DNA of 64,000 nt, from the NCBI GenBank assembly GCA_016208765.1, contig JACQXK010000004.1, positions 148,243 to 212,242 on the forward strand. Direction: 5' to 3'. Source of the stretch: Candidatus Omnitrophota bacterium. GTDB lineage: Bacteria > Omnitrophota > Gorgyraeia > Gygaellales > Profunditerraquicolaceae. The notes under the pieces are model-generated. The model was not told the DNA's origin and did not search any database. It saw nothing but the letters and a program-made list of their open reading frames with translations. The first letter of the stretch is position 1; the number at the start of each line of letters is the position of its first letter. This document shows, in pieces, positions 1 to 41,200 of the stretch. A program made the position numbers and the translations under genes.

Positions 1-330
1 ATACATGGCAAGCGTACGCAAAACCTTATGGCCGCATTTGTCATACCATGGTGGATTTGAAAAGATCCTATGAAATCTTTCATTAGGCCCCAAGCAATCA
101 TAAAGATCTCCGCAGCAGACCTTCACATTTTTAAATCCACTCAAGTTGGAAACAGCATCATCAAAAGCATCTCTATTAATATCAGTGGCAACAAAACGGA
201 CACCCTCAACGTTCTTACTGCTCATAGCTATAGCAGCAGTCAATATTCCGCTTCCTGTGCCAATCTCAAGCAAACGGCATCCAGTGTGAATATTTTGGCC
301 TATTACATCAACAGCCATATCTGCCAATTG
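1..330 (-). other. HemK/PrmC-type (NPPW motif IV) SAM methyltransferase domain, truncated by the window edge (LEIGTGSG ... DINRDA ... NPPWYDK)
   Basis: Motif I at about 235..260 and NPPW at about 25..45. Confidence 0.55.
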
Positions 331-11259: not shown

Positions 11260-11268
11260 CCATTTTTA
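11184..11268 (-). other. Frameshift junction splitting a class-I SAM methyltransferase domain (motif I, VGCGDGS, is in the upstream frame; post-I and motif II/III, FDLVLFNESL...LLNKYGKILIID, are in the -1 frame). Candidate one-nucleotide indel near the TTTTT/GGTCTGG run at 11238..11250.
   Basis: The giant frame reads ...ILSVGCGDGSLEKLLLKNGCVVFG then nonsense and a stop. The overlapping -1 frame reads ...GAYVGSAYAAIEIMQRVALNCPEIAAPGGFDLVLFNESLNSMRGIELVLRQAFSLLNKYGKILIIDYANP, matching the equivalent stretch of the two other methyltransferase copies in this gene (GISVEGWELDRQLY / GINVFGCEFNNSLY). Confidence 0.6.
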
Positions 11269-14200: not shown

Positions 14201-17200
14201 GCACAAAATGGTGTATCTTGATCATAAAATTTCCCAAATTACTTATTTCTTGAACTCTCTTTGACTCGTAATTATTCCTTTCAGCGAATGCATAGGCAAA
14301 GTTCAACTCTTTACCGGCGGCTACGCGAAAATCAGGCCCATAATCCTGCAGCTTGAATTTCAAGCTATCCCAGCGATCTTTGGTTACAGGAAAAAAGAAT
14401 TTAGTTTCCTCACCTTTCAAGAGTTTTAAAATATCAAACCCATATGCCTGCTTAAGATAAAATAAAGCCGACAGATCATCCATAGAAAGAGGCTCGCCAA
14501 AATCACTGATATTAATCCCAACGCCCTTCCCATTCTTTTCCCGGAGGGAATATATAATTTGAATAAGCTCATTAATGAATTCTGCTATTTTTATAGTTAT
14601 ATTACTCCTAATATTTAAATCTTGCTGCAACTCTAAAACGATTTTTCCTGCTATAATTTCACCAAAATTTTCCGGCGGGCTTGCAGAATGCTCCATATAC
14701 ACCAATGCTTTTTCTGCTCTGGCGGCTGCTGGAGAAGAAACGACATCATCATTTCCTACTTCTGTCAGAAACTCCCGCAAAAGTTTTGTATAACCTCCTA
14801 ACATGTGAACTTCGTGCCCGCGATAAAAATCTACAAAACCACAAACCTTAACACCATTATATTCTAATTTCTCTACAATCTTTTGCTGACAATCAAATAC
14901 AACTATAGGATCCCGAGTGCCTCCCATCCAAAATACCGGACAAGTAATTTTAGAAATTATATCCCCATCAAACACGCTGCCTTCTTTTTCCAAATCCATA
15001 TCTCTTATCATTAAAATATCCCAAATAATTGTAGAAACTGGAGTTTGCTTACCACGAAAAAATAAATCATCAAAAAACTTTTCAGGAATAGGATTAAATA
15101 AATGTGCAATTCTGCCGAATATTTTCTTCACAATACTGCCTGATAATTTAGAATTTAAAACTCCGTCACGATAAAGCTTGTCAGCAAAACTAAGCATCAT
15201 TAAATAAGCCTTAAGGCTCTTTTGGTTATTCCTAGAGGCATTATCAATCGCCTTAACCGCGCCAAGAAAATACTTCTCAAATAAATAATAAAACTTCTTC
15301 AATGATTTCGGGTATAAAGAATGCAAGAAATTAGCTGAACCCGCAGAAATAACCAGCGCTCTGACTAATCCCGGTTTTAAAGCAGCGAAGCACATTGAAA
15401 GCGCAGCACCCATACTGTGTCCAAAAACAAAAGCTTTTTCTATATTTAACTTCTCAAAAACCAATAATAAATCATTTGCCCTTACTTTTGCCTGAGGAGG
15501 TGCTGTGCCTAATGTTGAACCGTTATACCCACGCCAAGAAACACAAACGATCCTAAATCCGTCTTCAAGTAAAGCCCGAATCTGACAAGCCCAGTCTTTT
15601 AAAGGATCTCCCACGAGAAAACCATGCAAAAATACAGCTGTTGGGCCATTATCATTGCCGCCATACATAAATTTTATTTTGGCACCATCACTAGTAATAA
15701 TTTCGCTGTGACAAAAATTAAGAGACCTTAAGAAATGCACTGCTCCTTCCCATTCCGAAAAACCGCCAGCATAATCCCCAAATACTTCTTCAGGCTTCAT
15801 TTCAATTGGCGATGAAGAAAAATCTCCATTTTTAAAAATAACTCCGGCATCTTTCTGGCTAAAACCACCATCAATAGTAAAAAAGCGATGCGAGAATTTA
15901 TTTCTTAATAAATCCCAAGGATAATATTCAGGCATAAAAACTACAAAACAAGCGCCTTCTTTTAATGTCTGGGCAACATAGGCCTCCAATAAATCCAAAC
16001 GATCAGTACCACAACCGCCATAATAATGGTAAAGCAGATTATAATCTCCCAAAGGCGCCTTTAAGAAATCTCCTTGCATGAACCTAACCTGTCCTTCTCT
16101 TATCGTTCGTCTCTTATTTGGCGATAGATACAGAGATTGCCACGAAAGAGCAAGTTGATACAAAGAGTTGTTAAATTCACAGCCGAAAACATTAATGCCG
16201 AATAAACAAGCCGCCATAACATCAAAGAATCCATTTCCTGAACCAAGATCAAACAAATTAATCTCGGAAGGATTCAAATGAATTTCTCTTATTGCCTTAG
16301 ACAATAAAACAATTGCTTCCGGCCCGGAGGGCCAATGCAGGCCCTTTTCAGTTTTCTTTTTTAAACCTGAGAAATATTTCTTAAAGAAATCAGACGCGTT
16401 TTCTCTGCTTATCAGCTCATCAAATTGCCAATTTAAGAAACTTATAATAAAATCTAATGCTCTTTCCCAAGCCTGCTTGTCATATTCATCGGCGCTTAAA
16501 GGCAGGCGATTATTTTCTATGACCGCCGAGGAGGCGCGGGTTTTGATTGCTTGGGTTAACGCAGATGAGGAGCCGTTAGAAGGATTACAGCGGTTATCAG
16601 ATTTAACTTCCTCCCAAATCTTATAGAAGAATTTCTTAAATTCTGAGCTTAAGTTTTCAGGAGACGTAAAATTGACTCTGAGCATTTGCTCAAAATCTTC
16701 ATTAGAGCTTTCCTGGAGATAATACCGGAATTGATTATAAAATGCTTCTCTCTCATAAGCTGAAGCTAAATATTCTTGAGATGAACGATAGGCGCCTAAT
16801 TTTATATCGGGATTACTAACCCACTGCTTGTGATGTGTTAATACGTGTACTAAAATCAGGGGCAATTTAGATGAATTAACATAATTTTGGTTAATAATAA
16901 TTGCGTAGCCCTGCTCAGAATTAAGTTTTGTTTTCAATCCTTGCTCAAATACAACAAATTCCTCAAGAATAACTGGTTTTGAATAAAAAGTTGCGCCAAA
17001 AATATACGTGCCAAGCTTTTCAAAATAGTAATCCGGCATGGTAATAATATTTAGCGCTCCTGCCTCTTCTTGCGTTATCCCGAAGTACTTAACAACATCC
17101 GGGGAAACTTTATTAATATCTAAACTCCTGGAATCATTCCTATAAGAATTAACAAATGTCCGATAAAAATCATCTCTATATAAAGATTCAATCGTGCTGC

Positions 17201-20200
17201 ATCCGGAGAAAATAATAAAGAAAGCACTGAGAATAAAAATGGTAAAAATAAGAAGAAGTGTTGAGGATTTATGTTTGAGGTTTGATAAAATGCTAAAGAA
17301 TCTATAAGGAACCCAACGCGGACGTCTTTCTAACCTACCGTTAATTGACATTGATTCTTCATAACTAATTATGGCATCACGGGTATTACGGACATACTCA
17401 ACAAATCTATCCCATTTTGCGTCTGCTTCCGGATCTCCAAACCTGGGAATTTCAAAATAATATTCACTAAAGTCAAAATAACGCGGTTTCTGCTCCTTTG
17501 GTTTAACCTGAAACCCATCCGGCAAAACCAGATAAATAGCAATAAGGTAGCCATCGCTGTTATATAAAAGTTCAAATTCAGCAGTATTTAACAATTCAAA
17601 CGGAAGAATATCCAGCCCTTGCGGAGCATTAAACCTATCCTCCAACTCAGGAACCTGAATCCTGTGTATAGTGAGGTTATTTGGCCCCTTCCTGATAGAA
17701 ACCCAATAAGCCTGCTCCAGATCTAGAACAGACAAAAGTTCCCATGCTGGCATTCTCTGAACTTTTTCTGCAATTTCTCCCGAGATAACCCGAGGGACAA
17801 GATGAGAAATATCTGTTGCGATTTTTTCATTAGCTTCTTTTGCTACCGCGGATGATGCGCCCCGCTTACCCACTGTCCCGATTGGGTTGGAAACTGTTTC
17901 CCGATTGGGTTGGAAACTGTTTCCTTTCTCGTTTCGTAATGAATGCAATGCCACTTCTAAGAAATCAGGGTTATTCGTCAAGTATTCTACAATTCCAACA
18001 TTTAGCCCAAATCCTGTTGGTCGTGAAAACCTCTTATCAGTACATAATAAACATGAAACGAGCCACGTCCACTCATGATCTTTTCTTACCACACGGACAT
18101 ATTTATTTATTACCAACCTGATAGTTTCGTAAGAGAGGTTAAAATCACCGTTAAATTTCCGGTATCCTTTACCTGTAATTCTAATTTGAATTATTTTCCA
18201 ATCGCGCTCCCTTTGCTCGTTGCTTCTATACCGCAGGTGATTACAAACACCTGCTAAATAATTAATTAAATACTCCTTTAATTTTAAAAGCTCCCCACCA
18301 AGTATTGATTCTAATGCAAGTTCCTCGGAAGACTTGCCACTTGCAGGAATGCTGTCTATTTTATTTTCATCTTCTCTTCCGGGATTGGGGGCATCTAATG
18401 TCAATATTTCCCTTTTTGCTTTGTTGAGTTCAGTTAAAGCCTCGGCCTTTACTCTTCTTGCGATATAACGCTCCAAGGCGTAATCTAACCTTAACCCATG
18501 AAGGACTTTTTCCGGGTCAAAACATTCTATTGATCTGTATAACGCCTTTAGCCCGGCCTTATCAAACCTATCATTCTTTTCCTCGTTCCCAGGGAAAATC
18601 ACTCTTTTTATTGTTTTTGCAATCACATAATTATAGATATTTGCTAAAACTATTCGCGCTGCGGCATTGCCTCTTTTTACTTCAATAATCAACTGACGAA
18701 TTTCGTCATTTCTTAAATCCGGTGTTCTACTTGTATTCTGCGACTTCACAACTAATTCATCTATCTTTTCCTTACCGATAATCCTATAAACAGCATCTGG
18801 GTCATCACAAGATTGGCTCCATGGAGGATAACAACTTTGAGCTCTTGGATTATACAAACCCTGCTCCTGAACCGTATCAATTATCTTAAGCATTTTCTTA
18901 AGGGCTATTACTTTTTCAGTAAGGCTATTTCCTTTCATTAATGCCAAAGTCGGAGTAAATCTCCTTGGATAGCAATCCCACAGAGAAATTTCTCTCAAAA
19001 AATGAGTAGGAAGCAAGCTTCCAGGGCCTTCTAACTCACAAGTTTTTGAGATTTCAATCAAAATAGCCAACAATGCTTCTTTTGATACAGTCTTCCATCT
19101 GATCAAAATACAGTTTTCTAAACAGCTCCGCACAAAATCCAAATCTTGATAACACCTACCCTCACCAATAAACCCTGTTTCTCTTTCCGCAGACGAGGAA
19201 TAATTCTCTACAGCAGAACTTGAGCTGCTTGGAGTAACATTTTTCCACCATTCATAAAGCGCATGATAATGCAAAGCATTCTCCCGCTCTACACCAAAAT
19301 CTATGTAGCTAGATAATATGTAACGCGCGTTTTCGTTAATTAATATGGGAACCCACGCTTTATGCTCTTTAGACAAACCTACCCAAAGCCTAATAATGTT
19401 TTCTTTACTAAACCTATGATCCACCAACAAACACTGGATAAGATAGGCAAGAAATTCCGGATGGATAGTCTTTAATGAACCTCCGATATTTAAATAATCA
19501 GCCTGAAATAATTTCAACAGCGCTTCCCATAGCAGATCAGGGCGATGATAGTAAACAAACTCAATATACTCAGCTGAATCTTCGCCATAACTCACCATTT
19601 CTAACATTTTCATCTCAACATGCCGAAAATCATCAAGGCTCTTAGTTCCCCAGACAATTGACATCATCCCGGATGGCAATTTCCAACCCACCTGCCAATG
19701 AGGGCATGAATCAAGATAAATCTCACAAAGCCCATCCTCAAATAATCTTTGTTTAAGCCTGTGCTCAATATACCCGCCAAAATATTGATCTACATAGTTC
19801 TCAAAGATATCATTCATGCCGAAAGAACGATTTAAATTAATTGCATACACATTCATATTTTGCTTTTTTAAGAAATGAATAAACACCAAGACATCATTAA
19901 TAGATACATCAATTTCTGAAAAATCACGCGGCGTGTAACTGGGAACTTTTGTGCACTGGAAATAATCATAATCAATTGTAACAATTACGGGAGTTGTTAT
20001 TTCTTTAGCTAATAATTTATTTTTAACTCTCGTAATATCATTATCCAAAATAAATTGAATATCCTGTTTTGCCTTGGCATCCTCACATCCTGTATTCCAA
20101 TATGGATATATTTGTATAATATCCTTAACAGTCCCTCTATTAAGTGCAGCTGCCAACCAATTATTATTATAAACCTCTACTCCACAGAAGGCCGTGTCTC

Positions 20201-23200
20201 CGTGATTATCAAAATTAACAACTACAAATGGAGCATCCGGATTTTCCCTCATCCAATAAAATAAATTTTTATGTTCATCTGTTAACAATAAAGTGGGTTT
20301 TCCTGCGCTTGATTTTGTCTCCTGCAATAGCGGGCTTGAAACACGAATTTCTCTTCTATGTTTCTTAAAACAATTTCTAAACTGTTTAACATCACGATAT
20401 AAATATACTGAAAGCATATTTTTCTGGCGGGGATCAGCGATAATTCGTAAATAACCAAGGCAAAATACAACTGTGGCATTAATTTGAAAGCTTTTAGTTA
20501 CAGTTAAATACGGCTCAAAATCATAATAATTATTAATGCTCTCTATGGCCCCTAAAACAAGAACTATTTCTAGTTTAACACCATCAATTAATACTAAATT
20601 AATTGCCTGCTCAAAAGCGTCACGAATACAGCATTCCCATAAACCGCCGGTTAAAAATAATGTAACTTTGCCGGTAGAATAATTACTCTTGAGCAAACTA
20701 GCAAAATCAACAAGATTGCTAAAATCAGACGATAGCTTATAAAAATCAGTTTCTCCTTCAATAATAAAACCCATTTTTTCTATTGCTTCAATCATCCTGC
20801 GCCTGGCATTATTATGCTCAGCCTTGCAATCCTTAAAACCAAACATACATACTTTTTCTTTTCTTATTGCTGAGGAAACGCCATCAGCTTTCTTGGCTTC
20901 TTCAGGAATAAAGCGTGTTTCTATTCTCTCCACCGCCGAGGAGACGCGGTTCTGCTGCTTAAGGTTTAATTTGTAATGTTTAGTGTTTAGACCAGCGGCT
21001 AATAACTCCGTTGGAGAAGAAATAACAGGGCTGCTGGAATCATCACAACCTTCTTCCTCGGAATCAACGCTGGGAAATTCTAATCTCTCAGACTCTTTTT
21101 CAATACGTTCAGCAACTTTAACCAACAATTTCTTGACCTTGTTACATACTAAAGAAATTCTAATTCTTTCTCTTCCCGGTAAATCATCAATTGCTTTTTT
21201 ATTCTGACTGCGGAAAGAAGCCAAATCTGTAGACAAGGATTCTAATTGTGATAAAACACCTTCTAATTGATCTTTATCAAAAGAGTTTATCTCTTCGCTG
21301 ATAGTGGCAAGATCTGTTTCGGCATCAGAAACAATACTAAGATCTAAGAGTGAAATTCCTAGTGCAGGAGGCAATGGAACAGTTTTCTTTAGAAAAGATT
21401 TTCTGGGTTTATTTTCCGGGGAAGCATGCGGTGCAGGCTGATAATTTTCTAATATCTTCTTATATGTCCTGCACCCGAAGAGGATCGGGAAAACCCTTTC
21501 TCCAAAAATGTCAATTGTTGGTGAAATACCCTGCCTGAGCACACTCTCTAACGGCAAGCTGTACCTGATATTGCCGTGCTTCCCTACTAAATCATACAAT
21601 TCCTGTTCCAACTCATCTTTTAAGTCATTGCGCAGAAAAAAGAAATCAATTATTGCCTTGGCAAGTCCGGCCAAGTCATCTACTTTGCTCTGGATAGTAC
21701 AGCCACGAAATCCGATATAATTAAATACCCTCTGTACGGGCTCAAGCGCAGCAAATTCTTTAAGGCGCGCCTGCTCTATTTGTCCGGCGGTAATTTTATC
21801 CTGCAGATCACACCAATCATCATCATTCTTTGGCTCCGGAATACTAAATATTCTGGCTACTTGGCCGCGGCTCAAAGCAACCCTGCCCAGATCTTTCCAT
21901 AATAGTTCCTCATTAATTATAGGAGGCGCTAAGATTTTCGCCGGAGGCTTAGCTCCCGGCACAAGTTTAGCTGCCGGCGCAGGAATACCAGGCTGACTAT
22001 CCGGTTGAGATAAAAGCTTTCTTGCCCGGCTAATGTTGCGCTCTACAGCCGAACGCTTCATTCCCAATGCCCGCGCAATCTCATCAACAAAAGGAACTCC
22101 TTGATCCAGATTAACTTCGGCTAAGCCTCTAAGGTGTTCGGCAATTTCTTTGGGGTAATTCCGCACTCTGCTTCTTTTCGCCTCTGCTTTAGACTGAAAG
22201 ATAGCAACAGCTGTTTTCACTCTCTCATCACTGGAGCCTTGTAATAAAGTTAAGGCTCTTTTTAAATGCGTAGAAAAACTCCTGCCGGTCAAACTTAAAG
22301 CCTTGCCGATCTCTTGCCGCGAAGGAAGAGCCTGGCGCAAAGGATCTTCTCTAAATAAACCAGAGACATAATCATATATTTCCCGGGTGTAATCTCGTGC
22401 AGTTCTTCTTTGGCGCCGCTTCTCCACCTTCCAGGTTAAAATTGCTCCCAAGATTCTTTTATCTTGCGTAGCCTCCAATAAATCCAGGGCTTCATTAAAA
22501 TATGCATAAACCGTAGAAACACTGCAAATCAACTTCTCTGCAATCTGTGCAACAGCAGGAAAAACATTAAGCTCCGGATTATCCGCAAATAATTTTTGCA
22601 GATAATCTGCGATTGCCTGCGGAAAGTTCTCCTGCCTGATGCCAGATTCCGGATGAGCCCTTCTCCATGATAAAACTGCCGTATTTATCCGCTCTCCCTC
22701 TTCGGATTCAAGGATCTTTAAAGCAGCTTCCATGAATTTATAAACTGTATCTTCCGTTATATCCAAAGCTTGGGCGATTTCCGCTTTTTCCGGCAGCTGT
22801 TTACGTTCAGGGTCATTTGAAAAAAGTTTTAGAATAAAATTAGCGATTTCCCGAGGGCAATCTGCATACTCCACCTTTGGCTTATCCTGTAAATACGGCC
22901 ATTGCGCGACCGCCATGTTTATCCTTTGATCGCCGAGCGCACTCAAAATTGCTAATGCCTCCGGCAAATGATCCGTGGCATTACCATGATCCATATGTAA
23001 TACCTGAGCAATATCTAATAAAGAAGGAAATGTTTTTAAATCCGGATTGTCACTCAACAGGCCCTGCATATGATTCGCCAGATCCTGGCTGTAATCACGC
23101 TGGGTGGCAGCACTTCTTTTATGTTTATACCAATGGGTTAAAGCAGTTTGTATCCGCCCATCTGGATTAGCTTTAAGTAAACCGAGCGCCTCTGAGAAAT

Positions 23201-26200
23201 TCCTGCCAACCATCACTCGGCCGGCTGCGATTCCTACGGAGATCTCCTCCTGAGAAGGCAGGTATATTTTCTCCGGGTCATGCTCAAATAGCCCTTCCAC
23301 AAATGCCGCGATCTCTATAGCATAATCCCTGGCCTTGCTCCTTCTTCTTCCCATGTGCGTTCCGAGATTTTTAATTGCCCGGTTTATTGCAGGATTACCT
23401 AATGCCTGTAATCTGACTAAAACCTTGGGAAAATAAGCAGCGATATAATCTTCTTCTAATCTTAGCGCTTCAGCGATTTCAACCTTCAACGGCATAATCC
23501 TGCGCTCAGGTTCCATCCCAAATAAATCTACAAGATAATCCACGACCATCTGGATACCTCTATTTTGACAGTCCAGATAATTTTTTTCGTGTTTCTGACG
23601 CCAGCTGCTAACAGCATTCTTTATCCGGAGATGATCCAGCCTATCCAATAAAATTAATACTTCATCAAAATAAAGAAATACTGTCAGCTTGTTCACCTCT
23701 AAGGCCTTGGATATTTGCCCGATATTCGGCAAACCAATAACATCAGGATTATCTGCAAAATACTTTATGATATAAGGGCTGACTTTCGCTAATAATTTAT
23801 CTTTTGACCTGGAGGGAGTAAACTTTTGCCCAAAACCTTCTCCATGTTCTTTTAACAAATCTGCGGCTATTGCCGCAACAATCCTTTGATCTCCTTCTTT
23901 TAATAATGCTCGTAAGGCCTGTTTGAAATCGCGATGAACAGTTGAGATGCTAATAGTTAACGCAGCAGCAATCTCGCTTCCTGCCGGCAGTTCCGTGCGT
24001 CCGGCGTCTTGGCTGAAACACCCCCTGATATGATCAACAATCATTTGCACGTAATCTTTGCTCTCTCTTCTGCTTCTATTTTCATACCGATTAACAGCTT
24101 GTAATAGTCTTTCATTCCCGGAATTCTTTGCCAATCCCAGCGCCTCTTCGTAATTTCCCTGTATATTTGCTATGGTTAAGGTAAGAGCTTGGCTAATCTC
24201 TTCTTGATAAGGCAATTCCGTACAAGAAACATCTGCCTCAAAAACCTGCCTAAAATACTCTGCTATTCTTGGCGCGTGATTTGTTCTTTTACGCCCGAGA
24301 GAAACACTCTTTGTCTTGGTTGCTCCACTCCAGCAGGCGCCTAAAATTGCCGCATTAATCCGGGGATCGGCCAATTCTTCAAGCAATGCGATTATCCGGC
24401 CTGAATTATGGCTAACTGTTTCTCTGCTCATACCCAAAGCTGCTGCGATTTCTGTTTGTAACGGAAGGGTCTCTCGTTCGGGTTCATTTCTAAATAAACC
24501 TTGCAGGTAATTCGCAGCTTCCCGAGCATAGCACCTTTCTTGATGCGCCGCTCTCCACCCTGCTACTGCTTCTCTTACTCTTTGATTTTCTGAATCCTCT
24601 AATAATCCCAGTGCTGTAGAGAAATGCTTACTCACGCCTCCAACACTCATCTTTAAGTCTGCTGCAATCTGCGGCTGAAATGGCAATTCTTTACGGTCCT
24701 TTCTGATCCGAAATGAATCTTCAATGTACCCTGCAATTTCAACGGCAAAATTACGCTGCCTGCGTGAATTTTGATCGCCAAAACTCTTACGCCATAAAGC
24801 TACAGCGTGCTTAATTCTTTCCTCGCCTACACTCACTAATAGGCACAACGCTGCTTCATAATGCCCGGATACCGTCATCACATTTAAAGAAAGCTGCCTA
24901 CCGATTTCTGCCTGCGTAGGTAAATTTTCTCTCCTTGGCTGCTGACTGAATAAATTTTTCACGCACTCTGCTATTGCTTGTGGGGTTTTCTCTTTGGCTA
25001 TTAAAGTTGCTATACGTATACGAACATCATTAATTTGCATTAATCTCATAAGCAAATCTGCCCAATAATTAACAGAAATGGTTTCCTGACAATATCCTAC
25101 TTCTAAACCAATCTCTCTTTGCGTGGGCAATCTTATAGCTTCCGGGTTCTTCACAAAATAATCCAAAATATATGCCAATATTCTTTGTATAATTTCCTCC
25201 TTACGCGCATCCTCCTGAGATAATGGCGCAGGTTTTCTTGCAGGCGCCGGGTATAACGCAGGTGCAGGTTTTACAGGTGCCACAGGCCTGGCATCCGGCA
25301 CAGGACCAGCCAAGATTCTCTTTGCTAATTCAAGATTTAACAGATTCATTTGGTCAGTTAAGCTTCTATCAGCGCTTAACACTGCCTCCGCTACTTCTAA
25401 TGCAAGCCCGCTCTCTTCAGCAATTTCCCGAGGATTAACCATCAGCCCTTTTGCTTCGATAACTACCATTGCGTCAACAACTGCTCTCCTTGCTTCCGAT
25501 GTTTGTATCGGTTTACCTTCATTCCCTGTGCCCTGCGCTGGCTGAGCTTGTGCGCCTCTGAATATCGTTTCTAATTCAGGTTCTTTATTCATAAGCCTAA
25601 AGAAAAGTGACCTGTTGAGACCAACCTTAGCCACCAGTGCATCAATAGTTACTGGCTCTTGATTAGACACCATTGCATCAATAGCTTTCTTCAGCGTGCG
25701 GCACTGACTCAGGGCAATTTCTTTTTTTAACTCAGGGCTATCCCGTAAAACATCAAATAAATTATGGCGATCCAAAACTCCCAGTTCATTCGCAAGCCTA
25801 TGCGTAGTAACAGGTAAACAACACCCTTTCTCTTCATATCTATGAAGCGCATTCCTTATCTGATCTTCCTGGGCATTCCTTAAAGTACTTCTGACAAGAT
25901 CAAGCCCCAGGCACGCCTGCAAATCATCAGGGCGCAATCCGGTAGCTGTTAACAATACCCGATTACTGATAAAAGCCCCATTCAGCAGATTCGGGATTAT
26001 ATTCTCAACCACCCATTTACCTCGGGCAAGCTCAACTGCTTTTCTTTGAACAGGATTCATCATGATAATCTCAGAAATAGTCCTGCGGTCTATGCCTGAA
26101 TAATCTGAAATTGCCATAATACAGGGAAAGGCATTTTCCGGAAGCGGCAGAAGTTCATTTATTAATACTGATAGGGCATACCAAGCATGCTCATCAATAT

Positions 26201-29200: not shown

Positions 29201-32200
29201 ACAGTCTAGCATCAATGATCGAATCATTTGTAAAACCGCTTTCTTCTTTTATGGCAGAGCTGGAATTTTGAAGAAGCTGTCCGCAAACCTTCTTCCCCGC
29301 CGTGGTAATCGCAGAAGAAGATGCGCCTTGCTGCAATCTTTTCAGTTCTTCTCTTACAGTTTGGAGAAATTTTTCAGGTGCAGTTAACGGATTGTTAACA
29401 AGACCTGCTAAGGTTAATCTTGCCTCTTCTCTTCTTGTTTTTGATAACGACCCTGCCACTTCACCATAATGGTGTATTGCCAGCCGCCGTAAATTACATG
29501 ATTGATTTGGATCCTTGAATATCTTAGAACACAAAAATAGCCTCTTAACAGGATTATTCTCTCTTCCAAATGTAGCAAGGAAAATATCTATATCATCTTC
29601 TGTTTTCTGTGGAAGAGATTTGCGGCCATAATTTCCTTTCTTACTCCGAGGGATAACCACTCTTGGGTCATCTGTCCTCTTTTTAGAATCTTCAACTTCA
29701 ACCTCAGCCTGCCAATCTGCAAAAATTACAGGCAAAATAGCCTTGATCTCCAGCTCAAGAGAAGCCCTGAACGCGTTATCACATAATAAAGCCGTTTCAT
29801 TAACAACATTAACATGCTTTAAAAGCCCGAGAATATCGCCTATCAATTCTTCTTTTTCAGAATTAAATATACTGAGCAACCTTTCCTCAGTGCACGTCTG
29901 GACTGCTAAACATTCAATAATCAACCTGTTATCAATTATCCTTGCCCTGAATGTTTTTTGAGTAAGTAATAATTCTCTAACTGTTGTTAAGCGCCTCGCC
30001 ATGGAACTGGTTAATATTTCTTTTATTCTATTTGAGTTTAAATTGGGAAATTCGCTCAGGCTTAGATCATTAGCAAGTAAGAGGACGGCTTCTTGACGTA
30101 AATTCTTTAAATCAGCAAATATTTCAGCTGGATCATTTGTTATCGTCATAGTATCTGTATCAACAACCTCAAAAACTCTTAAGGCATAATCCAGCCCAAA
30201 ATATTCAAGATAAAAAGGCATATACCTTGATATGCAGTCTAAAACTAAATGCGGCAGAACTTCCGATAAAATATTTTCTTCATTATCGCCCTTGTTATAA
30301 GCTTGCGCAACCAATACGCCGGCAAAGTCTTCATTTCGCCAGCCGAAGAAATTATGCAATCCATTGATAAATGGCGCCAAGGCCTGCCAGGCTGCATTAT
30401 GATATGATTCCCATGTTTTAATCTCCTCTTGAGACTGCTTGTCAAGATCAACTTTATTTACCGCTTCCTTCTTTTTTTCTTCTTCTTTGGTTTGATCAAA
30501 TAACTGCTCTAATGCCGCTCTTGATCCCTCTTCCTGTCTTTTCCGGCTTAGCATATATCTTTCCATTTCCTGGTCAGCTTGTGCAAGAAATTCTGCAGCA
30601 GTAGGCCTGCTTTCTTTCTCTAAATAGGCCCTTTCTGCTGCTTCTGCATAAGCCAAAAACTCTGCTTCCTGCGCCCGAAGCTTCAGCCAACAATCATTAA
30701 ACAAATTATCAAGGCCCTCTCTAATTTGTGCTGCTTGCTGTGCTCTTAGGTATTTCGCTTCTGCCAAAGCCTTTTGCTGTGCATTTCTCAACTGCTCTAA
30801 TTTTGCCTGTAATTCCACAAATCGCCTGCCTAACTCCGGCATCTCGGCAAGAATTTTCCTGGCCTTTTTGCCATTACCCTTACTTGAAGGCGCAATTTTC
30901 AAAGCTTCATTCGCCAAGTCAAGAGCGTCTATCTGATCAAATTTTGCCAATTGCTCTAAAGCATTAAACAAAGGATCCAACTGCCTGGCTTTCCATTCTT
31001 TCTTCTTTCTTAAAACCCCTATTTCCTCCTGGGCAACCCTTGATAATTCATCAACCAAAAGCCTTGTTTCTATATTGGCTGCCTGCTCCGGAGTCAGAAG
31101 CGCAATTCCTGAAACAACTATCTCGCGCGAAATCTCATTTTGCCGCAGCCGCTTAAATAAATTTTCAGCGCTGGTGCCGGTGACTAATTCTATATGGATC
31201 ATATTGGTGATTGTCGGGCCTAAGTCCAAAGTTATTTCTCCATCCTTTTTAATAACCTTCTTCCCCTGAGATGCAAATACAAACTCCAAACCTTCTTCAT
31301 CGCGCCCAATGGTTTTAAATAAAGAATACTTTAGAAAATAGTAAGTTGTTAAATAGGGAGCATCATTTATAAGTGCATCAACGATAATTAACCCCTCTTC
31401 ACATTTTTTATTCTCACGACAATAATCAAGAAGGCTGGCGATAGCCAGATGCAGATGGCCGTCAAGGTTCTGGATTGATTTTGCCGGCTGCTCAACCCGA
31501 TACAAGAATAATAATGCCCTTAACATGGCGCTGCTCCTGGTGACGGAAGAAACAGGCCTTGCCAGGCTTAAGGCCAAATCAAAAATCTGCGTAGCAAGGG
31601 TTTTTCTTCTCAGAGGATCTACGATCTCATCCAAACCATGATTCAAGAAGCCGCCAAATTTCCCTGCCTGAAAGAATACCGTCAGATACGGCAAACGGCC
31701 ATTAGAATCAGAACTTAACTCTGCCAGCAAATCATTTGCTTCTTTTTGCAAAATTGAATCACACGGATAACCTTTTAATATCGCCTCTTGCACTGTTAAC
31801 AAAGCATCCTTGTATCTTCCAAGCAGTTTCAGGGCCTCAAATTTATTCAAATATATTGCAAAACCTGGCCCTGCAGCTAAAGCCAAATCATAATGTTTCA
31901 GGGCTTCTTCATAACAGCCATAAACAGAGTAGGCATACCCTATGGCATCCTGAAGGCTGGCGCGGATCTGCGGATCATTCACTAATGCCTGCATCCTGCT
32001 AAATGTTACTATTGTGTTAAGATTCCTCCCTTGCTGGCGATAGATTGTGGCCTGAAATTCTAATAAAGCGATAATAATTGTGCCTGCTCCTTGCTTTACC
32101 CTGACTTTCGCGGTTAGGCCTTCTGCAAAAACAAGAGCCTCAGCAGGCATTCTCATTGCTACGAAATGCCGGCACAAGTTTTCAAGCATCCTTGCCAGGA

Positions 32201-35200
32201 ATATTGAATTCTCCGTAGAAAACGGATAGTTTCCTTCTATAAATTTGGCCACTGCGCGGGAACAAAAATCACGCGCCTCCTGTAGCAAACCTAATTCTGC
32301 AAGATGAATTGCCGTATGTTGTAAGGCCATAAAATCGCCGTGTTTAAAAGAATGCCCGATTGCTTCATTGAATAACCTCAATGCATCTTGAATAAACTCC
32401 GGTTTATTTTCAAGCAGCGCCCTCTTAAGAATAAATTTAGCCTCCCAGATAAAACGATATGCAAAACCTGCTTGATCTTGCTTAAAAGAACGTAAAATAT
32501 TTTCCACATCTTGATTTACAAAATCATTACTCAGGTAAAACCACAGCAGTAAATAACGTAAATCATTATTGTTAAACCGGCCTGCCCTAAAATCTGCAAA
32601 TCTCCTGGCAAAGAAACTTGACATCTCTGCATCTGAACGATAACCTTCAACAATATAACTGCCATCTGCTGCCTTCTTTTGTTTTTGATGATAAGCAATC
32701 TTCTCAATACTAAGATGTGTAAAAATAAGCATCTCTTGAATACGCTTGCGGGAATTTTCATCTACCACTTCCAACAAATCAAGTAAGCCGGCTATATTTG
32801 TTTCAGTATCAGCCCCGATTAACGACCGGAAGATATTAAAAGAAGCGGCAAGGTCACCGGCCTCAAATGATCTTTTTGCCTGTTCAAAACGCTGGCTTAA
32901 ATCTTCAAACAAGCCCGATCTCTGTACCATAAGTTCTTTTTCTCTTTGCCTTAAAGCAGACTCTAACCCTGCAACATCCAAACCCTTTTCTTTAGCCCTG
33001 ATAATCACATCCCTTGAAGAAGGCGCATCTAAGATCATTCCGCTGTATTTTGCGGTTTCCTCCCCAAGGATAATCTCAGAAACAACCTTACCCCTATCCT
33101 CCTGACTATTGGCTCCTAGAAGATTGAATATTTCCACTTTCTCATCTGGCACAACGCCAATACCAAATCCTGCCAAAGCTTCTTCTGCCTGTTCGCAGCT
33201 AATATACATCGGCCCGCATTCCTGTGCATATTTTTGAACAAACTCTTCTATCTTGCTTACTGCTGAAGACGAGATACCTTGAATAGCAAAAATGTTTCTG
33301 TCTTCTTCTTTCCCGGCTGATAAGGCAGGTGAAGCAGCAGAATTTACATTAAGCAGCTCTTGAACAATAAACGAATCCTTCCATACCTTTAAAAATACAC
33401 AATCAAGCCCAATTCTCTTACGCCAATCTGAAAATGGTATTTCGTATTTATAATAAGTATACTCCCCGTCTTTGCTTGCTATCTTGCCATCCACAACACA
33501 GAGCCAAATTAATTGCTCGCGCTCGTACGGCTGAAGCTTAGAAAGAAAATTTAGACTAAGCATTTTTTTAAATTCTCCTATACGCACATTCACAGGCAGC
33601 CTGCTGGCGCGATTCCAGAGTAAATCTGACTCAAATACCGGCTCAATATCCAAACAACAGAATCTACGGTTTTTCCAAAAATATACTCCGGGGCCAAAGC
33701 TCGGATACATAGTAATTACTTGCCCATCCTCATCGCCGACTATAATTACTCTCATCAACCCATAGGCGCTATCTAAATAAGAAACAAAAGCCTCTCCCGG
33801 CCACCAGTCTAAAACATTGCCATCGGGCAAATCACGTATTGAGCGCGCGGACTTGACTGCTTTATCTAATACTGGGCCTATCGTTTCCGGAGAATAATTG
33901 GAAGGGAAATATATGGTGGGCAATTTCTGCAAATTTCCATCACGAGGAAAAACGTGCCTTCTTATGACATGGCTTCTGTTTTGTGCGCTCAGAGTTACCG
34001 GCAAAGGCGTTGCCTTTAATTCGTTATTATTAAGCCGGGTTAACAAACGCGACAAAACTCTGGAATAAATTCCAATGCCATAGCCATCTGAAAGCGATAC
34101 AGAATGCTCGCAAAATTCCCTTGCCTTGTCAGCGCCGTCTAAAACAATAATCCTGAATAAAACATTAAGCATGGTTTGATATTTCAAGATAAACCCGGTA
34201 CTGTCCCCGGGCGCAAGCCGTATAAGCTCCTGGGTATAGGCTATCGCATTTTCAAAATCTCCCTTTTGGATGCAAATCTTTGCCTGACGGCTCAGAAGAT
34301 TTTGATTTAAAGGATCAATTTTTAATACCGATAAGATTAATTCTGAAGCTTTCTCAAATTTCCCTTGGGCAGCCAAGCTTAAACTTAATAATAAATACCC
34401 GGCAATATCATCGGGGAATAAAGCGGCAGATTTCCGCGCAATCTCCAAAGCCTCGTCAAACCTTTCCATCACAAACAGTACCGCATGTTTTTGAGTATAC
34501 CCTACCGGGTTAAGAGGAGAAGTTTCTACACACATATTTGCTGCTTCAAGCGCATAACTAAATTGCACCTGCCTGAAATATACCTGTGACAATATCCAGT
34601 AACTAATAGCCAAAGATTTTAGGTAAAATGGAGCGCCCCTTCTTTGAAGGCGGGAATTGCTGATTTTAACTGCCTCATCAACAAATTCTTTTGCTTCGGA
34701 CAATCTTCCCAAGTCCACATACGCCTGCGCAAGCTTGTTTAAAACAACCACATTTTCAGGATTAAGGCGTAATGCCGACATCAATTTAGGAATTTGAGCT
34801 AATGGTAAAAGTTTACTTGCCTCTTGGCAAATCTGACGAATTTGATCATTAATGTCAGGCCTGCCTGTCACAGGCTTAGCAGTAACTGTTGTTTCTGAAC
34901 CTCCATTACAAATCAAAGATTTAAGATCAGTTAAAGCAACTCCGGCATTGGTTAGGCATACCTGCTTCACCTTTAAGATATCAGCTCCCGGGTGATTTAT
35001 TGAAATTGCCAGAAAGAACCCACCCAAAAACTCATCTATTAACTTAGGCAAGTTAGACTCTCCATTTGCATCTTGCGGGTGGCTGCTAAAAACGGCTAAC
35101 TTTCTTGAGAGATATGAATTTCCAAAATGCTCAACCAGGAAAGGAAACCTCATATGAATATAATTAGCTGCAAAAAGATTTAAGATACACCCGGGGGCTA

Positions 35201-38200
35201 CGTTATTCTCAAAAGCTATTAATAAAAACTGCCGGCATTCCACAGGATTAATTTTCAACACTTCCTGATGAGGGCTTAACACTGCAAGGCTATTTTCAAT
35301 GCAGGCCCTGCGATTAAGCCTGCTTACAAACATATCAAAAGTATCATTGGGGCTGTATTCAACATTATCTGATAATTCCATAAATAAATCTTCTTTTCCC
35401 AAAATCTGCAAAATACGGTAAATAATAAAAAACACTGCCGATAACTTATCGTAGCGTTTCTGGATTTTGCGCAACATTTTTTTGTTCTCAGGCTTGAGCG
35501 CAGACAGATCTTTCGCAATTAATTCCAACTCATCTTTTAATTCTGTAAAATAATCTTTTAACGCATTTATAAATCCTTCTTTGGGCTGCTCGTTTTCTAT
35601 CCCTGCGAGAAAAAGCTCAAACTTATTTTCACGGTTATCCTTGCTGAAATGGTTAACTAAACTTGGAACAACAATTTTATATATCTGGTTTGTTTCTTCC
35701 TGCGACAAAGAATCATCTTTGGAAAGATTTCCGGTAAGAGCCAAGAAGGAAACCAGCAGCTCTGCGCCAAAGCTTAAAATTCTGCACTGCATAAAATTTT
35801 CAGCCTCATCAAATTTACTATTGCGGATATAAATAAAGAATAAGACCATTAAAATTGAGTTTCCTAAATTAGACAAGCCGTGGCTTTTTATGGATTCTTG
35901 CAGGATTTTTTCTGATCTCTGTGAATCATGATTCAAGAAACACCCCCAAGCCAAAAGCCCCGAGATCACCTGATTGTCCTGTGGTATAAATTCCTGCCCG
36001 GACAGAAAATCTACGGCTTCAGAAACCCTGCCCAATTCAAACATGCTGGAGACTTTATAATAAATTACATCAAGAGCAACAAAATCTTCTGACTCAAAAC
36101 TAAGCGCCCTCTGCGCGAATTTCTCTGCTTCATTGTACCTATTCTGTTTAAAACGGATCCTGCTTAAAAGTGCAAAACCCAGGTTCTCTACCCCCTGCAC
36201 AAGAAGTAAATTCTGAGCCGCCTCTTCCGCACGAATAAAATCATTATTAGTCATAAAGTAAGAAAACAACGATGAGTACAGGCTCCTTGTCATAATCAAT
36301 CTTTCTTCTTGTTTCAGTTTTATATCACCTCCGGGAAGATTTAAATATTCCCTCATCTCAAATAATGATTTTTTGTAATGTTTTGCAGCCAGAAGATACT
36401 GGGCATTATTAAAATAGCAATCTGCAAGAACGCGCTGAAAAGGGGAAAAAAACTCTTTACAACCTTTCATCTTTTTTTGCAATATTCTTTGGCACATTTC
36501 TATGCCTTCTTTCCATCTTTCCTGATAAATTAATTTTTCCAATTCACTGGCTGATCGGCGAAACCTTATTAATTCTTGCTGGCTTAATGCTGAAGAAGCG
36601 CTTTCATCAGCTTTAGAAATGTTGCCTATTTGCTGCACTCCCACATAAGCTGATGACGATGAAATACGGACTACTGCGCCTACTGCAGAAGAAGCTTCAG
36701 GAGTTGATTCGTCTGAAGGTAAAATTAAATTGCCTGAAATACAATATTCAGGAATAACGCGTAAGGGTGATTTTCCGGCAATAACTTCTAATAAACCAAG
36801 ATTTTTTGACAAGTTTTCCCGGGCCTTAATTATTTCATTATAAGCAACGCCATTTAAACTTTGTTTTATGACTGAGATGTCTACGCCAAAAACCCGGTAA
36901 ATTACATCAACAAAACCTTTGCATGATGAACAATCTTCTTCAATTTTTAAGACCAGCTTCCATAAGCTCTGCCCAAGCGCCGCAAAGCACGTTGCAAGCG
37001 CAGCTCCCATACTATGCCCAAACAAACAAACTTTATTAATGCCTAATTCCTTAAAAACTAAATCTGGGTCATCCACTAATACGCGCGCACAAGGAGGCAT
37101 ATTACCTATTTTTGATCCGCCATATCCACGCCAGGTAACACACACGATTCTATAACCTTGCGCCAGCAATGCGTGTATCTGAATAGCCCAATCCAACAAA
37201 GAATCTCCCACCAGGAATCCATGCAAAAACACCGCAACCTTGGCATTTGCTTCTCCATAAGACCCAAGCTCACGACAAAATATCTGCGCCCCGTCAGGTG
37301 TTTCAATACAATTTGTTTTAAAGCTAAGGGTTAAGAGATGCCTTACTGCCATTTCCCATCCTGAAGAACCGGTTTCATCAGAAGGCGTAAAATCGTTTTC
37401 TATCGCTCCTATGGCAGAGCTGCCTTGCCGGCCCGCTGTCCCGATATTTGCTTGGGCTTCTACCGCCGAGGAAGAAAAAGCTCCGGCACCGAGGGAAGCA
37501 TTCTTAATTTGTTCTTCGCGCCCTTTAATAAAACCTAAATAGTAATCCGTAAAAATTTTTATTTCATCTGGATTAGTTTTCTCCTTCTGCTGCAAAGATC
37601 TTAACATTGCAAGGGCGTCTTTAACAACTCCCTGCTCATCAATAAGAACTATGCCCAAATCCAGTTTTTTTATAGTAAATTTTATCCCATCCATCTGCTT
37701 TTGATGACAAATAACCAGCGGCTCTTTCTTTGAAGATCCCCACTCTAACAACAAGCGACTATTAATTGCGCCAAATTGAGGCTGCTGCAGAAATTGTTCT
37801 TGCTCAACCATTTCCTGCGCCATTTCAAATAAAACATTAAAAACAAGCTCCACAGCAAGGATAGTCTCTTTATTAACCTCCAAGTGTAATTGCGTAATAA
37901 GCCCTTTAAGCTCAATAGCGAGTGAAAAAAATCCCCAAACCGGCTGCCTGGGAATTATCATTATTAAGTCCAACACGCATTCCAGGCATCTGATAAGCGG
38001 TAAAGTTCTTTGATATGCTAAATTAGGAAAAACTACTCCTTTTGGCGCAGAAGAAACAAACCCATCCTTTTTTACAGCACTACTGGACTTAAAATAGAAG
38101 ATTCCTGAATTTCCCGGAGAAATCTTGCGCCAGTTAATATACCTGGTATCTCCGTTTATGCTGTTATCCCCTAAAAGCAATCTCAGAGCTGCGATCGGGG

Positions 38201-41200
38201 TGCGGTGCGTAAAAATTACGGCTCTCTTACCTATATATTCCGGCGCAGACTCTGATTTTCTTAAAAACTGTGACATTCTAAGTAAAACATCAATAAAATT
38301 ATCCCCGCCACAAGGCTTAACCAATGCATTATTCCCAAAATAATATTTTTTGTATAATCTTTGCTCATCAGGAGTAAGCTCTTCAAATGATTTATTGCTA
38401 AAGTTTCCGGAAGACTTAGCAATAACTCTTTCATCGGTAACTAAATTTATATTCATACCTTTATTATTTAAATATTCAACAAATGCCTGTGCTGCTATTT
38501 TAGCCCGGCTCAAAGGGCTGGTAATTACTATGATATTTCCCCCTATTTCTTCTTGGCCCAAACCGCTCTCAAGCAACTTAAGCCAAATTCTATGAGCTAA
38601 GCCAGAAAGCCCTAATGCCGCTTGCTGCGTAGGCAGATTAATATCACTATTGCTCCTTCCCTGAGGGATCCTTTTTGCATTTGCCAGAGTTTCCGGATGG
38701 CTCACCAGACAAATCCCATTAAATCCCGTAGGATATGGAGAAAAATTATCAATTATAGTAAGCTTAGAAGTATCCCCGTGTACCAAAACCCCCGGCAGCC
38801 CAGAAACTTTTTTTAAAACCAGTGACTTGGCAACAGCCACTTTCACTTGTTTTATTAAAACATCATCTCGCGGAGCAAAAGCTAATGTAACCAGGGCCTT
38901 TTCAAATTCATCTAAAGTTATATAAATCTTAGCAAGAAAACTATAGGCATAAATATTTTTAGCCCAAGTTTCTATGGCAAGCATACTAAGAACAATTGCT
39001 TTGTTAGTGTCTTTTGGGAAATATATCTTTGCCAGACCAAGATACGCTTTAGATAAATAAGGCTGGTCATCAGCATTAATTTTCTTTTGCTTTGGTGATC
39101 TGTTTGTTATTGTCTGTATAACACTCTCAAAAAGTTTTCTTGCTTGGTTTTTCTTTCCCTTGGAAAACAATACCTCCGCCAGATTGACTATTCTTTGCGG
39201 GTCATGCGGATAATGCCCTTGGACGATACGGATCTGTTTGCCATCCGGACGATAATCACTCGCAGGCCTGCCTTTTTTCTTTCTGGTTTTCTGAAAATTA
39301 TCTGGATCATCACCAAAACTGCGGCCATTTTTCTTACCCTGCAGTGGCGAGGAAACAGCAGCTTCGGAATTGCCTAAAGGACTTTGCGCAGTAAACACTG
39401 CTACCAAAGCGCCTAATATTTCTTGAGTTTGTAGATGTGATTGTGAGTAAGATTTATTGGGATGGGCTTGATTTAAAATTACTATTATAAATACCTCGGG
39501 AGGAGCGCGGATCCCGTTTAGAAAAACAACTTGCCTATCTTTTAAAATAGAGGTTTCTTGTCCATACCTTAATATTGTAGATCTAACCATTGTTCTTGCC
39601 AGCAGAAATCCATTTAAACCTAAAGTAAATTTTAGGGTTGGTTGTTGCGAAAGGCTACTGTGTGCCGACACAGGAATCCGGGGAATATCTGCTGTTTTGG
39701 CTACTGCTGAAGAGGCATTTTCGCAAAGTCTGTCCAATCTTTCCCGGGGAGACTCAAACTCAGGCGCTAATACTAAAACCTCTTCAAGAAATTCTATTGC
39801 CTTTTTTCTATACGCGTGCATAGCGGCAATTTTGTTAAAAAACCGATAATGTATTGATCCTGCTTCAAAAATAGAAGCCACATTATTATATATGTATGCC
39901 AAAATCCAAGCCAGGGCTTCTCTTTGCTCATGCTTACGTTGAATTCCTTTCTCATAAACGATTCTTTCCAGGAACTGCGGATCCGGCATTAAAACCTTCC
40001 CATTTGGAGAGATGGAACCTACGCTAATATGCACATTTTTATAACCTTCGGAATCAACAGCAACTAAATTATTGAACCCTAATTCTTCTAATAAAAGATA
40101 CACAAAAAGAGACATCTGGCCACAGGCGCAAAGCTGCGAATTTAAAATCACAGAAAGAAACTCATTGCCTGAATCAACCATATTCTTAAACAGTTGCTCA
40201 AGCATTTCAATATCCGGCTTTTCAATAAACAGATAGCTGATTCTTTTAAAAGTTGGAGCAAACAACAAAGGCTTTTGGGAATCCATAGAAAAAACATCTT
40301 CTTCTTCGCGCCATTCATTTAACGCAACAAATACTTCTTCAACACTCCTGCCACGAAGATGCCTGCTTTCAATAAATGGCTGCACCAATAAAGTTCTAAT
40401 TTTGTGAAGATTACCTGAGTGCTTAAGTGGAGAAGAAGCGCAGCCTGGGATAATCCCTTTTAATCTATCTGTATTCCAAAATAAATACCCGTCCAAATCT
40501 GCGCAATAGTGAATCCAAGAAAAAGTTGCTTTTAATTTGTTGAACCCGCGCAATGTTGGCCCAAAAAGCACGAAGAATAAATCGTTTTTCAGTAATATCT
40601 GCGCAATTCTCTCTTCAAGTAATTTCTCTCCTTCACAAGATGCACCCATGCCATAATAATAAACAATTTTACGCCTGCTTGTTTGCGGCAATAAAGAAGC
40701 CTTCAAATAATCACCCCAGACAAAAGAAAGCTGTCCGGGCCTTACTAACCCTTTTTTTATACCAAATTCATTTATCCGCAAAGATTCCTTATATAGCTGC
40801 CTGTCTAATTCCCAACCTTCTACTGATATTCCAAATATATGTGCCAAGCCCAAAGCAAACACACCATTACCTGAACCTAAATCCAGAAGGCTTAAATCAA
40901 AATTGTTTCTAAGCTTAGCGATTGCCTTCGCCGCCAAAACAAATGCCTCATCACAAGAAAGATAATGGACCCCTCCAAAGGTTAAACGCCTCGGCCACAT
41001 ACCTGACAATTTCTCTCGCAAATATCCAGAAGCCCACTTTAAATCAGTATTGAATCTGTCAAAATAATACTGCTGCATTAAAGCCAAATAATTAGAAGCA
41101 AGCTCACAAATACGCTTATCGCGGTTTGTCTTAATTAAATCCACCTTAAGAGTTACTACGCTGCTAACCACAGAGCTTCTTTCTTCTCTTAATGTATATA

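Follow-up and report, generated by a model that had tools for sequence, protein, structure and literature searches.

The stretch of DNA examined here (the window: 64,000 nucleotides, positions 148,243 to 212,242 of contig JACQXK010000004.1, assembly GCA_016208765.1 of a Candidatus Omnitrophota bacterium) is probably an internal piece of one giant multi-enzyme gene, open at both ends. Comparison of its translation with itself and with its nearest relative revealed a pair of homologous methyltransferases, a pair of homologous alpha/beta-hydrolases of which one is truncated, a well-supported clade formed by the hydrolase copies, rearrangements of whole modules between the two organisms and a pentapeptide that recurs between domains far more often than expected. 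We consider it likely that the gene evolves module by module and that its paralogues descend from old internal duplications.

One minus-strand reading frame takes up nearly the whole window; it is interrupted by a single frame break and spans at least 21,359 codons. The stop-free stretch A (11187..63998, minus strand; 17,604 codons) leaves the window at its high end, and stretch B (1..11265, minus strand; 3,755 codons), in a different frame, leaves it at the low end and extends the modular protein of stretch A. Residues of the two stretches are numbered below with the prefixes A and B, amino acid i of stretch A corresponding to nucleotide 63998 - 3(i-1). The frames overlap over 79 nt (11187..11265, minus strand) within a methyltransferase domain, just past its motif I 'SVGCGDG', and a single frame is regained if one T is added to the T5 run at 11247-11251. 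This break may reflect an error of sequencing, a genuine frameshift or the boundary of a gene; a promoter and terminator scan around it gave nothing exceeding shuffled expectation.

For the self-comparison the translation was cut into pieces of 400 amino acids and the matches were confirmed by phmmer; an uncut self-BLAST had concealed the matches within stretch A, which were culled beneath the self-hit. Internal paralogy was detectable in about 14% of the 21,359 residues, mostly in an array of 14 helix-turn-helix (HTH) units. The paralogous copies are 24-56% identical, with no nucleotide-level repeat among them. An earlier reading of the sequence (the original prediction) had proposed a methyltransferase and hydrolase cassette present twice together with duplicated kinases, HAD domains and GHKL domains. 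The self-alignment of the full translation recovered the methyltransferase, hydrolase and kinase pairs, and gave no third kinase, no HAD pair and no GHKL pair. Two weak pairs were also seen in the comparison of 400-residue pieces, one joining 59244-59795 with 47532-48038 and the other 56640-56987 with 50607-50915.

The complete alpha/beta-hydrolase, hyd-B (14766..15764, minus strand; A:16079-16411), carries the motifs GHSMG, 'GGTRDP' and 'RGHEVH' and reaches 68.4 bits against Pfam Abhydrolase_1 (cut-off 25.8; alpha/beta-hydrolase fold, PF00561 / PF12697). Its counterpart hydN (36948..37370, minus strand) is the N-terminal half of such an enzyme (140 residues). It comprises beta1-beta6 with HG as oxyanion motif and GHSMG as nucleophile elbow, and its Pfam match of 38.8 bits covers only profile positions 4-90 of 245. 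The two are 55.9% identical over 136 amino acids (A:8877-9012, nt 36963-37370, against A:16079-16211, nt 15366-15764; E 6.9e-41), which bears out the homology and the truncation that had been proposed and lowers the proposed identity of 'about 65%'. 'FLHGF' and 'GHSMG' occur in both copies, in columns that are invariant in a three-way alignment, and the 'GGTRDP' and 'RGHEVH' of hyd-B line up with the D and GH consensus columns of the family. A hidden Markov model (HMM) of the C-terminal half of the hydrolase matched hyd-B alone in the window, with no second or detached copy. In an AlphaFold prediction of the hydN module from a 27-sequence alignment, residues 35-175 were modelled as beta1-beta6 and helices A-C with a predicted local distance difference test score (pLDDT) of about 90, and the other 90 residues scored below 50. 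The complete eight-strand core is absent from hydN. Since the half of the fold that bears the acid and the histidine has been lost, hydN cannot be a complete, self-sufficient Ser-Asp-His catalytic unit.

What follows hydN is not hydrolase-derived. The tail of its module (36687..36974, minus strand; A:9009-9104), which ends at one of the pentapeptide delimiters described below, is a paralogue of the tail of another module (8650..8937, minus strand; B:777-872), which also ends at a delimiter (B:864); the two tails are 30% identical over 97 amino acids (pairwise E 7e-8). Since the approximately 95 residues after hydN share their ancestry with a tail that belongs to a different type of module, the hydN module is a chimera of two module families. 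A relationship of this tail to the remaining part of the hyd-B module was considered as well, and no homology was found.

A scan of one genome per species (185,579 species) identified a sole relative of the region holding hyd-B and its adjoining methyltransferase, MT-B. It lies on contig JACROS010000038, with 73% identity, in a groundwater Candidatus Omnitrophota metagenome-assembled genome (assembly GCA_016214325.1, below the JACROS genome). The same region was also searched exhaustively with phmmer against 1.84 billion representative proteins, which gave one match at E<1e-30, the same JACROS orthologue at 73% identity; the hydrolases that came next were ordinary ones with E>=1e-12, none of them above 43% identity. 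When 42 sequences were placed in a neighbour-joining tree, hydN, hyd-B and the orthologue formed a clade in 95 of 100 bootstraps, with distances of 0.65 between hydN and hyd-B, 0.64 between hydN and the orthologue and 0.21 between hyd-B and the orthologue. This clade, together with the absence of any outside relative above 43% identity, indicates that the hydrolase duplication is lineage-specific, and the sequences place it at or before the split between the window organism and the JACROS organism. It is not a recent event, since hydN and hyd-B share only 0.45 of their third codon positions and synonymous sites are near saturation. A metagenome scan with the hydrolase alignment added no relatives; it produced one 29%-identical hydrolase only, in an ordinary gene neighbourhood. 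A further homologue search with MT-B and the hydrolase gave 0 matches despite the presence of the 73%-identical protein in the exhaustive library, and its negatives are uninformative.

The second pair consists of MT-A (40449..41177, minus strand; A:7608-7850), with motif I 'LDLGSGNG' and delimiters at A:7587 and A:7855, and MT-B (15810..16568, minus strand; A:15811-16063), with delimiters at A:15811/15823 and A:16062. As had been predicted, the two are homologous, with 31.6% identity over 244 amino acids (A:7608-7837, nt 40488-41177, against A:15811-16044, nt 15867-16568; E 5.7e-22, phmmer E 3.8e-25). MT-B matches Pfam DOT1 (PF08123) with 27.2 bits against a cut-off of 23; MT-A has no Pfam match at E<=1, and its homology is established through MT-B (E 6e-22). 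Both contain 'DLGSGNG', a form of the D-x-G-x-G-x-G motif that binds S-adenosyl-L-methionine (SAM). The AlphaFold 2 (AF2) model of MT-B shows a Rossmann-type SAM-binding fold, with a pLDDT of 81.7 and a predicted template modelling score (pTM) of 0.83, and its top Foldseek matches are archaeal aKMT (5fad, 5fa8), 5bxy, DOT1A, Dot1p and DOT1L, with E-values from 3e-9 to 1e-7. MT-A and MT-B are therefore both predicted to be DOT1/aKMT-like class I SAM methyltransferases. The family HMM recognised exactly two members in the window; a degenerate methyltransferase remnant beside hydN was also looked for with this HMM, and none was found.

Each methyltransferase copy is closer to the JACROS genome than to the other copy: MT-A is 57% identical to the JACROS protein P0003 and MT-B 60% identical to P0001, against 32% between MT-A and MT-B. 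In the methyltransferase tree these two orthologous pairs are supported at 99.5% and 100%. Support falls to just 58% at the node that joins MT-A and MT-B, and four small stand-alone proteins group together as an outgroup clade (99.5%). Any duplication of the methyltransferase consequently predates the split of the two organisms. Setting the paralogues in trees with outside homologues thus grouped the hydrolase copies with each other and with the JACROS orthologue, and left the methyltransferase copies each nearer to a relative in the JACROS genome. An internal duplication giving rise to MT-A and MT-B, if internal it was, would be ancient, which is plausible but unproven. The family is nearly confined to giant proteins. 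In the JACROS genome the MT-A-like module is flanked by the counterparts of A:5960 and A:5952, two positions with no module between them in the window; it could be a relocated module or a third copy, the relevant contig stopping just short of the syntenic MT-A position.

Both parts of the proposed cassette are therefore paralogous, and only in copy B are they contiguous: the methyltransferase and the hydrolase are separated by 35 amino acids there and by 1,040 amino acids, with at least four other modules between them, in copy A. The order of methyltransferase followed by hydrolase is identical in both copies, which favours co-duplication. Expressed as -ln(identity), the orthologues have diverged by 0.52 for the methyltransferase and 0.26 for the hydrolase and the paralogues by 1.15 and 0.58, a ratio of 2.0 in both cases; a methyltransferase that diverges twice as fast as the hydrolase among orthologues and paralogues alike fits a single event. 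The independent movement of modules counts against copying as a unit. From these sequence comparisons, a joint duplication of methyltransferase and hydrolase is possible but not shown.

The rest of the JACROS gene allows the modules to be followed over a larger part of the window. Contig 12 of GCA_016214325.1 is collinear with A:3679-7562 at 45-62% identity, and contig 38 (JACROS010000038) is collinear with A:14023-17353 and parts of B, so that the window is orthologous to a giant gene of that genome. Close relatives of the window are limited to contigs 12, 13 and 38 of this assembly, proteins P0003 and P0010 being encoded on contigs 12 and 13. Several differences concern whole modules. An 870-residue insertion (A:14930-15803) is missing from the JACROS orthologue, as is the HAD module (13134-13691), and the MT-A-like module and an HTH block of the JACROS genome sit elsewhere than in the window. 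The module type represented once in the window by B:486-726 is present in three copies in the JACROS gene, so that module copy number varies between orthologous giant genes. Taken together, these differences indicate that gain, loss and movement of modules are ongoing. On JACROS010000038 (locus L001) the three copies of the B:486-726 type are found at L1a 1386-1634, L1b 2265-2517 and L1b 2792-2997, with 65%, 36% and 31% identity. The same locus shows frame changes (6694-6725) and an in-frame stop (16540-16542), and just downstream of the giant gene the JACROS genome carries an ordinary split transketolase (L004 9062-10815).

Modules appear to be separated by a recurrent pentapeptide, [A/S/V]-S-S-[A/P]-[V/L/I], which occurs at 56 sites in the window against about 3 expected, or approximately once per 380 amino acids. 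By shuffling, SSA[VILM] is present 38 times against about 2.3 expected and SSP[VIL] 18 times against 1.1. Examples are found at 16520-16531 (A:15823), 15801-15812 (A:16062), 13053-13064 (A:16979) and 12612-12623 (A:17125). These delimiters flank the annotated domains, only 4 of the 56 lying inside a domain against 14.7 expected (p = 3e-4), and where blocks of homology with the JACROS gene begin or end, a delimiter is found within 25 amino acids in 53% of cases, against 11% for random points. The AF2 models of the MT-B and hydN modules both put the delimiters in segments with pLDDT below 50. Orthologous blocks contain 19 of the window's sites, and 12 of these have a counterpart in the relative, with differing flanks. 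The JACROS giant fragments show an equal enrichment of the motif; in 12 ordinary genes adjoining the end of the JACROS giant gene it occurs 0 times in 3,029 amino acids, against 7.9 expected at the density of the giant gene.

Two simpler origins of the motif were examined. As a by-product of Ser/Ala-rich linkers it would be accompanied by its permutations, and these are at chance level. As a DNA-level repeat or recombination site it would be encoded uniformly, and its serines use mixed TCN and AGY codons and its alanines all four alanine codons; this mixture indicates selection on the protein and not on the DNA. The delimiter also forms the end of an extended linker, '(G)PSFPNxxETVSxSIGTVGKRGASSAV', of which five copies are 43-72% identical: '..GNSFQPNRETVSNPIGTVGKRGASSAV' at 17787..17942 (minus strand), and others at 41190-41282, 6595-6750, 3436-3666 and 1843-2070. 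At the DNA level this linker also shows up in direct repeats of 119 nt and in a tandem repeat of 23 nt at 17876-17924.

The pentapeptide may be a linker or a processing site. The -3/-1 rule of type I signal peptidase is satisfied by S-x-A followed by a hydrophobic residue, but not by the proline variant. We tentatively raise the possibility, which we hold to be doubtful at this stage, that the motif is a punctuation of Omnitrophota giant proteins, that is, a cleavage site or an obligatory junction that would divide a polyprotein into enzymes and define the units that are duplicated, deleted or moved.

Paralogy extends to other modules. The largest internal duplication in the range 14790-41050, which the original prediction did not mention, is the HTH tandem array (22002..25160, minus strand; A:12947-13999), made of 14 units of about 78 amino acids that resemble sigma-70 region 4 and are 24-33% mutually identical. 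It probably arose by tandem duplication. The array lies in a stretch that is slightly richer in GC (0.435-0.44), and a similar HTH block occupies a different gene position in the JACROS genome (L003, residues 2788-3105 of the first frame).

Two P-loop kinase modules, at 11997..12635 (minus strand; A:17122-17334; Walker A GKKAVGKT) and 1336..1965 (minus strand; B:3101-3310; Walker A GESGVGKS), align end to end, linker included, with 27% identity over 218 amino acids (E 3.6e-11). Their best Pfam model is AAA_18, with 24.7 and 27.2 bits, under the cut-off of 29.4; no PRK model of Pfam matches them, and the best PDB match has an E-value of 0.009 (Pnkp1). A profile search gave two weak P-loop matches only, and one weak database match is named 'uridine kinase'. 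On these alignments the modules look like an old pair of a lineage-specific family. Of three PRK-like kinases proposed initially, these two are confirmed as paralogues with intact Walker A motifs, the PRK-like label lacks a model match, and the third lacks statistical support: at 598-1131 the best pairwise E-value is 0.08, jackhmmer does not recruit the segment, Pfam (E<=1) gives no match, the PDB (E<=10) offers no support and 'GNSVFETA' replaces Walker A. Two receiver-like segments, 12741..13022 (minus strand; A:16993-17086) and 7642..7926 (minus strand; B:1114-1208), are also paralogous (31.6% over 95 amino acids, E 2.7e-7).

The two HAD domains and three GHKL-like domains of the original prediction fared less well. 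A HAD_2 domain is present at 13134..13691 (minus strand; A:16770-16955; Pfam 45.9 bits against a cut-off of 23.8, E 9e-12), with delimiters at A:16764 and A:16979. The other candidate, at 60198-61205, has no Pfam match at E<=1 and no PDB match at E<=10, and shows only a motif-I-like 'FDVDKT' and a 29-residue similarity to the first HAD domain at E 0.02. No HATPase_c-type match was found in the whole gene at Pfam E<=0.01 or PDB E<=0.001, which leaves the GHKL claim with one motif-level candidate. The segment 6826-7248 (B:1340-1480), which follows a receiver domain, has 'HELALN', 'DNGLGI' and 'RGCGF' in succession, like the N, G1 and G2 boxes of a GHKL ATPase; neither Pfam (E<=1) nor the PDB (E<=10) supports it, and the window contains no paralogue of it.

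A module-wise mode of evolution would tie these observations together. The giant protein would be a chain of independently folding modules joined by disordered linkers that carry the delimiter, and the gene would change as whole modules are gained, lost, relocated or duplicated in frame, in-frame recombination surviving mainly where its breakpoints fall in linkers. The paralogues of the window would then be old products of this turnover. In this lineage a hydrolase module would have been duplicated, one copy would have lost everything past beta6, and the shortened copy would have been joined to the tail of a different module type; hydN with its foreign tail would thus represent a breakpoint inside a domain that has been retained nonetheless. 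The DOT1-like methyltransferase pair and the P-loop kinase pair would be much older paralogues, from families seen so far almost only in giant proteins. For all of these we infer duplication inside this gene rather than between giant genes. The proposal that the gene grew by internal duplication followed by degeneration of copies thus holds for the hydrolase, is no more than plausible for the methyltransferase and kinase pairs, and lacks support for the HAD, GHKL and third kinase candidates.

Several points weigh against this account. Only one related genome is available and it is fragmented, which is too little to establish when and in which direction most events took place. An orthologue of hydN was not found, and the relative's contig ends 46 residues short of the syntenic MT-A position. 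The 58% bootstrap for the sisterhood of MT-A and MT-B is low, the methyltransferase of P0010 joining the MT-A pair in 39% of replicates, and the trees were built by neighbour joining, not by likelihood, from 127-216 columns. The distance between methyltransferase and hydrolase fragment in copy A speaks against a cassette, and with the break at 11187-11265 the 'one gene' is strictly two reading frames in the assembly.

The same weakness of the methyltransferase node is what would be expected if paralogous modules, MT-A and MT-B and the kinases especially, had been inserted separately from a pool in other giant or stand-alone genes. MT-A and MT-B (32%, 90 bits) are no closer to each other than to other members of the family, MT-A being 37% identical to P0010 and MT-B 33% identical (86 bits) to the stand-alone P0004; small stand-alone homologues do exist (P0004, P0071, P0098 and P0128), and the different context of the JACROS MT-A-like module indicates that modules do move. 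However, the stand-alone methyltransferases form their separate clade, and the members found in giant proteins all come from the orthologous gene of one metagenome-assembled genome. For the hydrolase, a donor closer than 56% would be needed, and there is none among the 1.84 billion representatives. The kinase pair, aligned over its whole length with the linker, has no comparable relative in the PDB or in a word-indexed protein search. Independent recruitment therefore seems to us unlikely. Errors of assembly, such as collapsed or chimeric repeats or mis-joined contigs, could also be suspected behind the duplications or the giant frame, given the frame break at a T5 homopolymer, the perfect 38-nt and near-perfect 46-nt tandem DNA repeats inside the frame and the frame breaks and in-frame stop of the JACROS genome as well. 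Yet assemblers can neither create nor confuse copies that are 32-56% identical as proteins and near saturation at synonymous sites, chance cannot keep one frame free of stop codons over 52.8 kb at 39% GC, and the JACROS genome, assembled independently, has the same collinear architecture. An artefact of this kind is highly improbable, and module-wise evolution with old internal duplications remains the reading that we favour.

Beyond the paralogues, Pfam and PDB sequence scans of the whole translation show a string of unrelated domains: CofD-like, phosphofructokinase, EamA, several TPR blocks, HTH, HD, histidine phosphatase, the two alpha/beta-hydrolase matches, HAD, receiver domains, several class I methyltransferases, a complete transketolase, Fic and two AAA_18-type P-loop domains. 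Core enzymes of carbohydrate metabolism and a membrane-transporter domain thus share one reading frame, with the CofD-like domain at 61533-62264, phosphofructokinase at 55146-55886, EamA at 52569-53015 and transketolase at 3709-5592. The Pfam scan gave no SecA or peptidase match in the window, and the EamA segment is its sole transmembrane-type match. Adjacent DNA tandem repeats lie within the open frame at 51799-52030, one a 38-nt unit repeated 2.3 times (100%) and the other a 46-nt unit repeated 3.3 times (93%). Because the two periods are not divisible by three, the reading frame changes from one copy to the next, and an alternative-frame open reading frame of 159 amino acids (51584-52063) overlaps them. 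These repeats look like recent slippage or an assembly problem.

Giant proteins of Omnitrophota have been described before. Methyltransferases, glycolytic enzymes, TPR and HAD abound in the 'Archaeovorins' (West-Roberts et al. 2023, bioRxiv 10.1101/2023.11.21.568195), and 'multi-enzyme metabolic cluster' giants have been reported in the same phylum (2026 preprint 10.64898/2026.06.07.730766). The window resembles both in its Omnitrophota nearest relative, in a single frame of tens of kb, in poor conservation between genomes and in its mixture of methyltransferases, HAD, TPR, receiver (REC) and HD domains, sugar-phosphate enzymes and transporter-like segments. The fold of MT-B matches PDB 5BXY, a template that the same authors also reported for a region of a giant protein. 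Archaeovorin-type giants have open reading frames of at least 30,000 amino acids with transmembrane regions, SecA-DEAD and an N-terminal peptidase; of the present gene only a fragment is seen, with at least 21,359 amino acids visible and a frame that runs past both ends of the window. Phosphofructokinase, a complete transketolase, CofD and the pair of DOT1-like methyltransferase and alpha/beta-hydrolase are modules not named in those papers.

In the 2026 survey (10.64898/2026.06.07.730766, 'Three architectural classes'), 65% of the Pfam-positive long Omnitrophota proteins carry a Pfam domain repeated at least twice, and the repeats are ascribed to ancient duplication and divergence and not to recent tandem expansion. 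The copies in the window, 24-56% identical and free of nucleotide-level repeats, are of the same kind, and the duplications are a fresh example of this described pattern. Unlike in the survey, the copies were tested here singly with outside homologues, one copy proved to be a truncated chimera, and the conserved motif marks the limits of the dispersed copies. Neither of the two papers mentions a linker, a motif or a polyprotein, and no paper among those searched pairs Omnitrophota with 'cleavage site'; information on cleavage points is missing according to West-Roberts et al. (bioRxiv 10.1101/2023.11.21.568195). Of our findings, the delimiter motif could be the part that is new and testable.

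Viral polyproteins have conserved processing sites between their domains, and the megasynthases formed by polyketide synthases and nonribosomal peptide synthetases evolve by duplication and exchange of modules at linkers. The window may be likened to them, by analogy only, in having many enzymes in one frame, a short peptide at the junctions and breakpoints concentrated in linkers. There is no sequence homology with these systems, the modules of the window are unrelated metabolic and signalling enzymes, and a protease, a cleavage event or an assembly-line logic would be hypothetical here.

The duplications suggest that giant genes of Omnitrophota grow and are remodelled module by module and that some modules decay to fragments, and this decay cautions against taking each domain match as an active enzyme. 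If the delimiter is upheld, it would provide objective module boundaries for structure prediction and for the comparison of proteins that are otherwise unalignable, and it would make whether and where giant proteins are processed a concrete question for proteomics. Should it prove to divide the protein into separate enzymes, the giant gene would functionally be an operon in one reading frame, with products predictable from its sequence.

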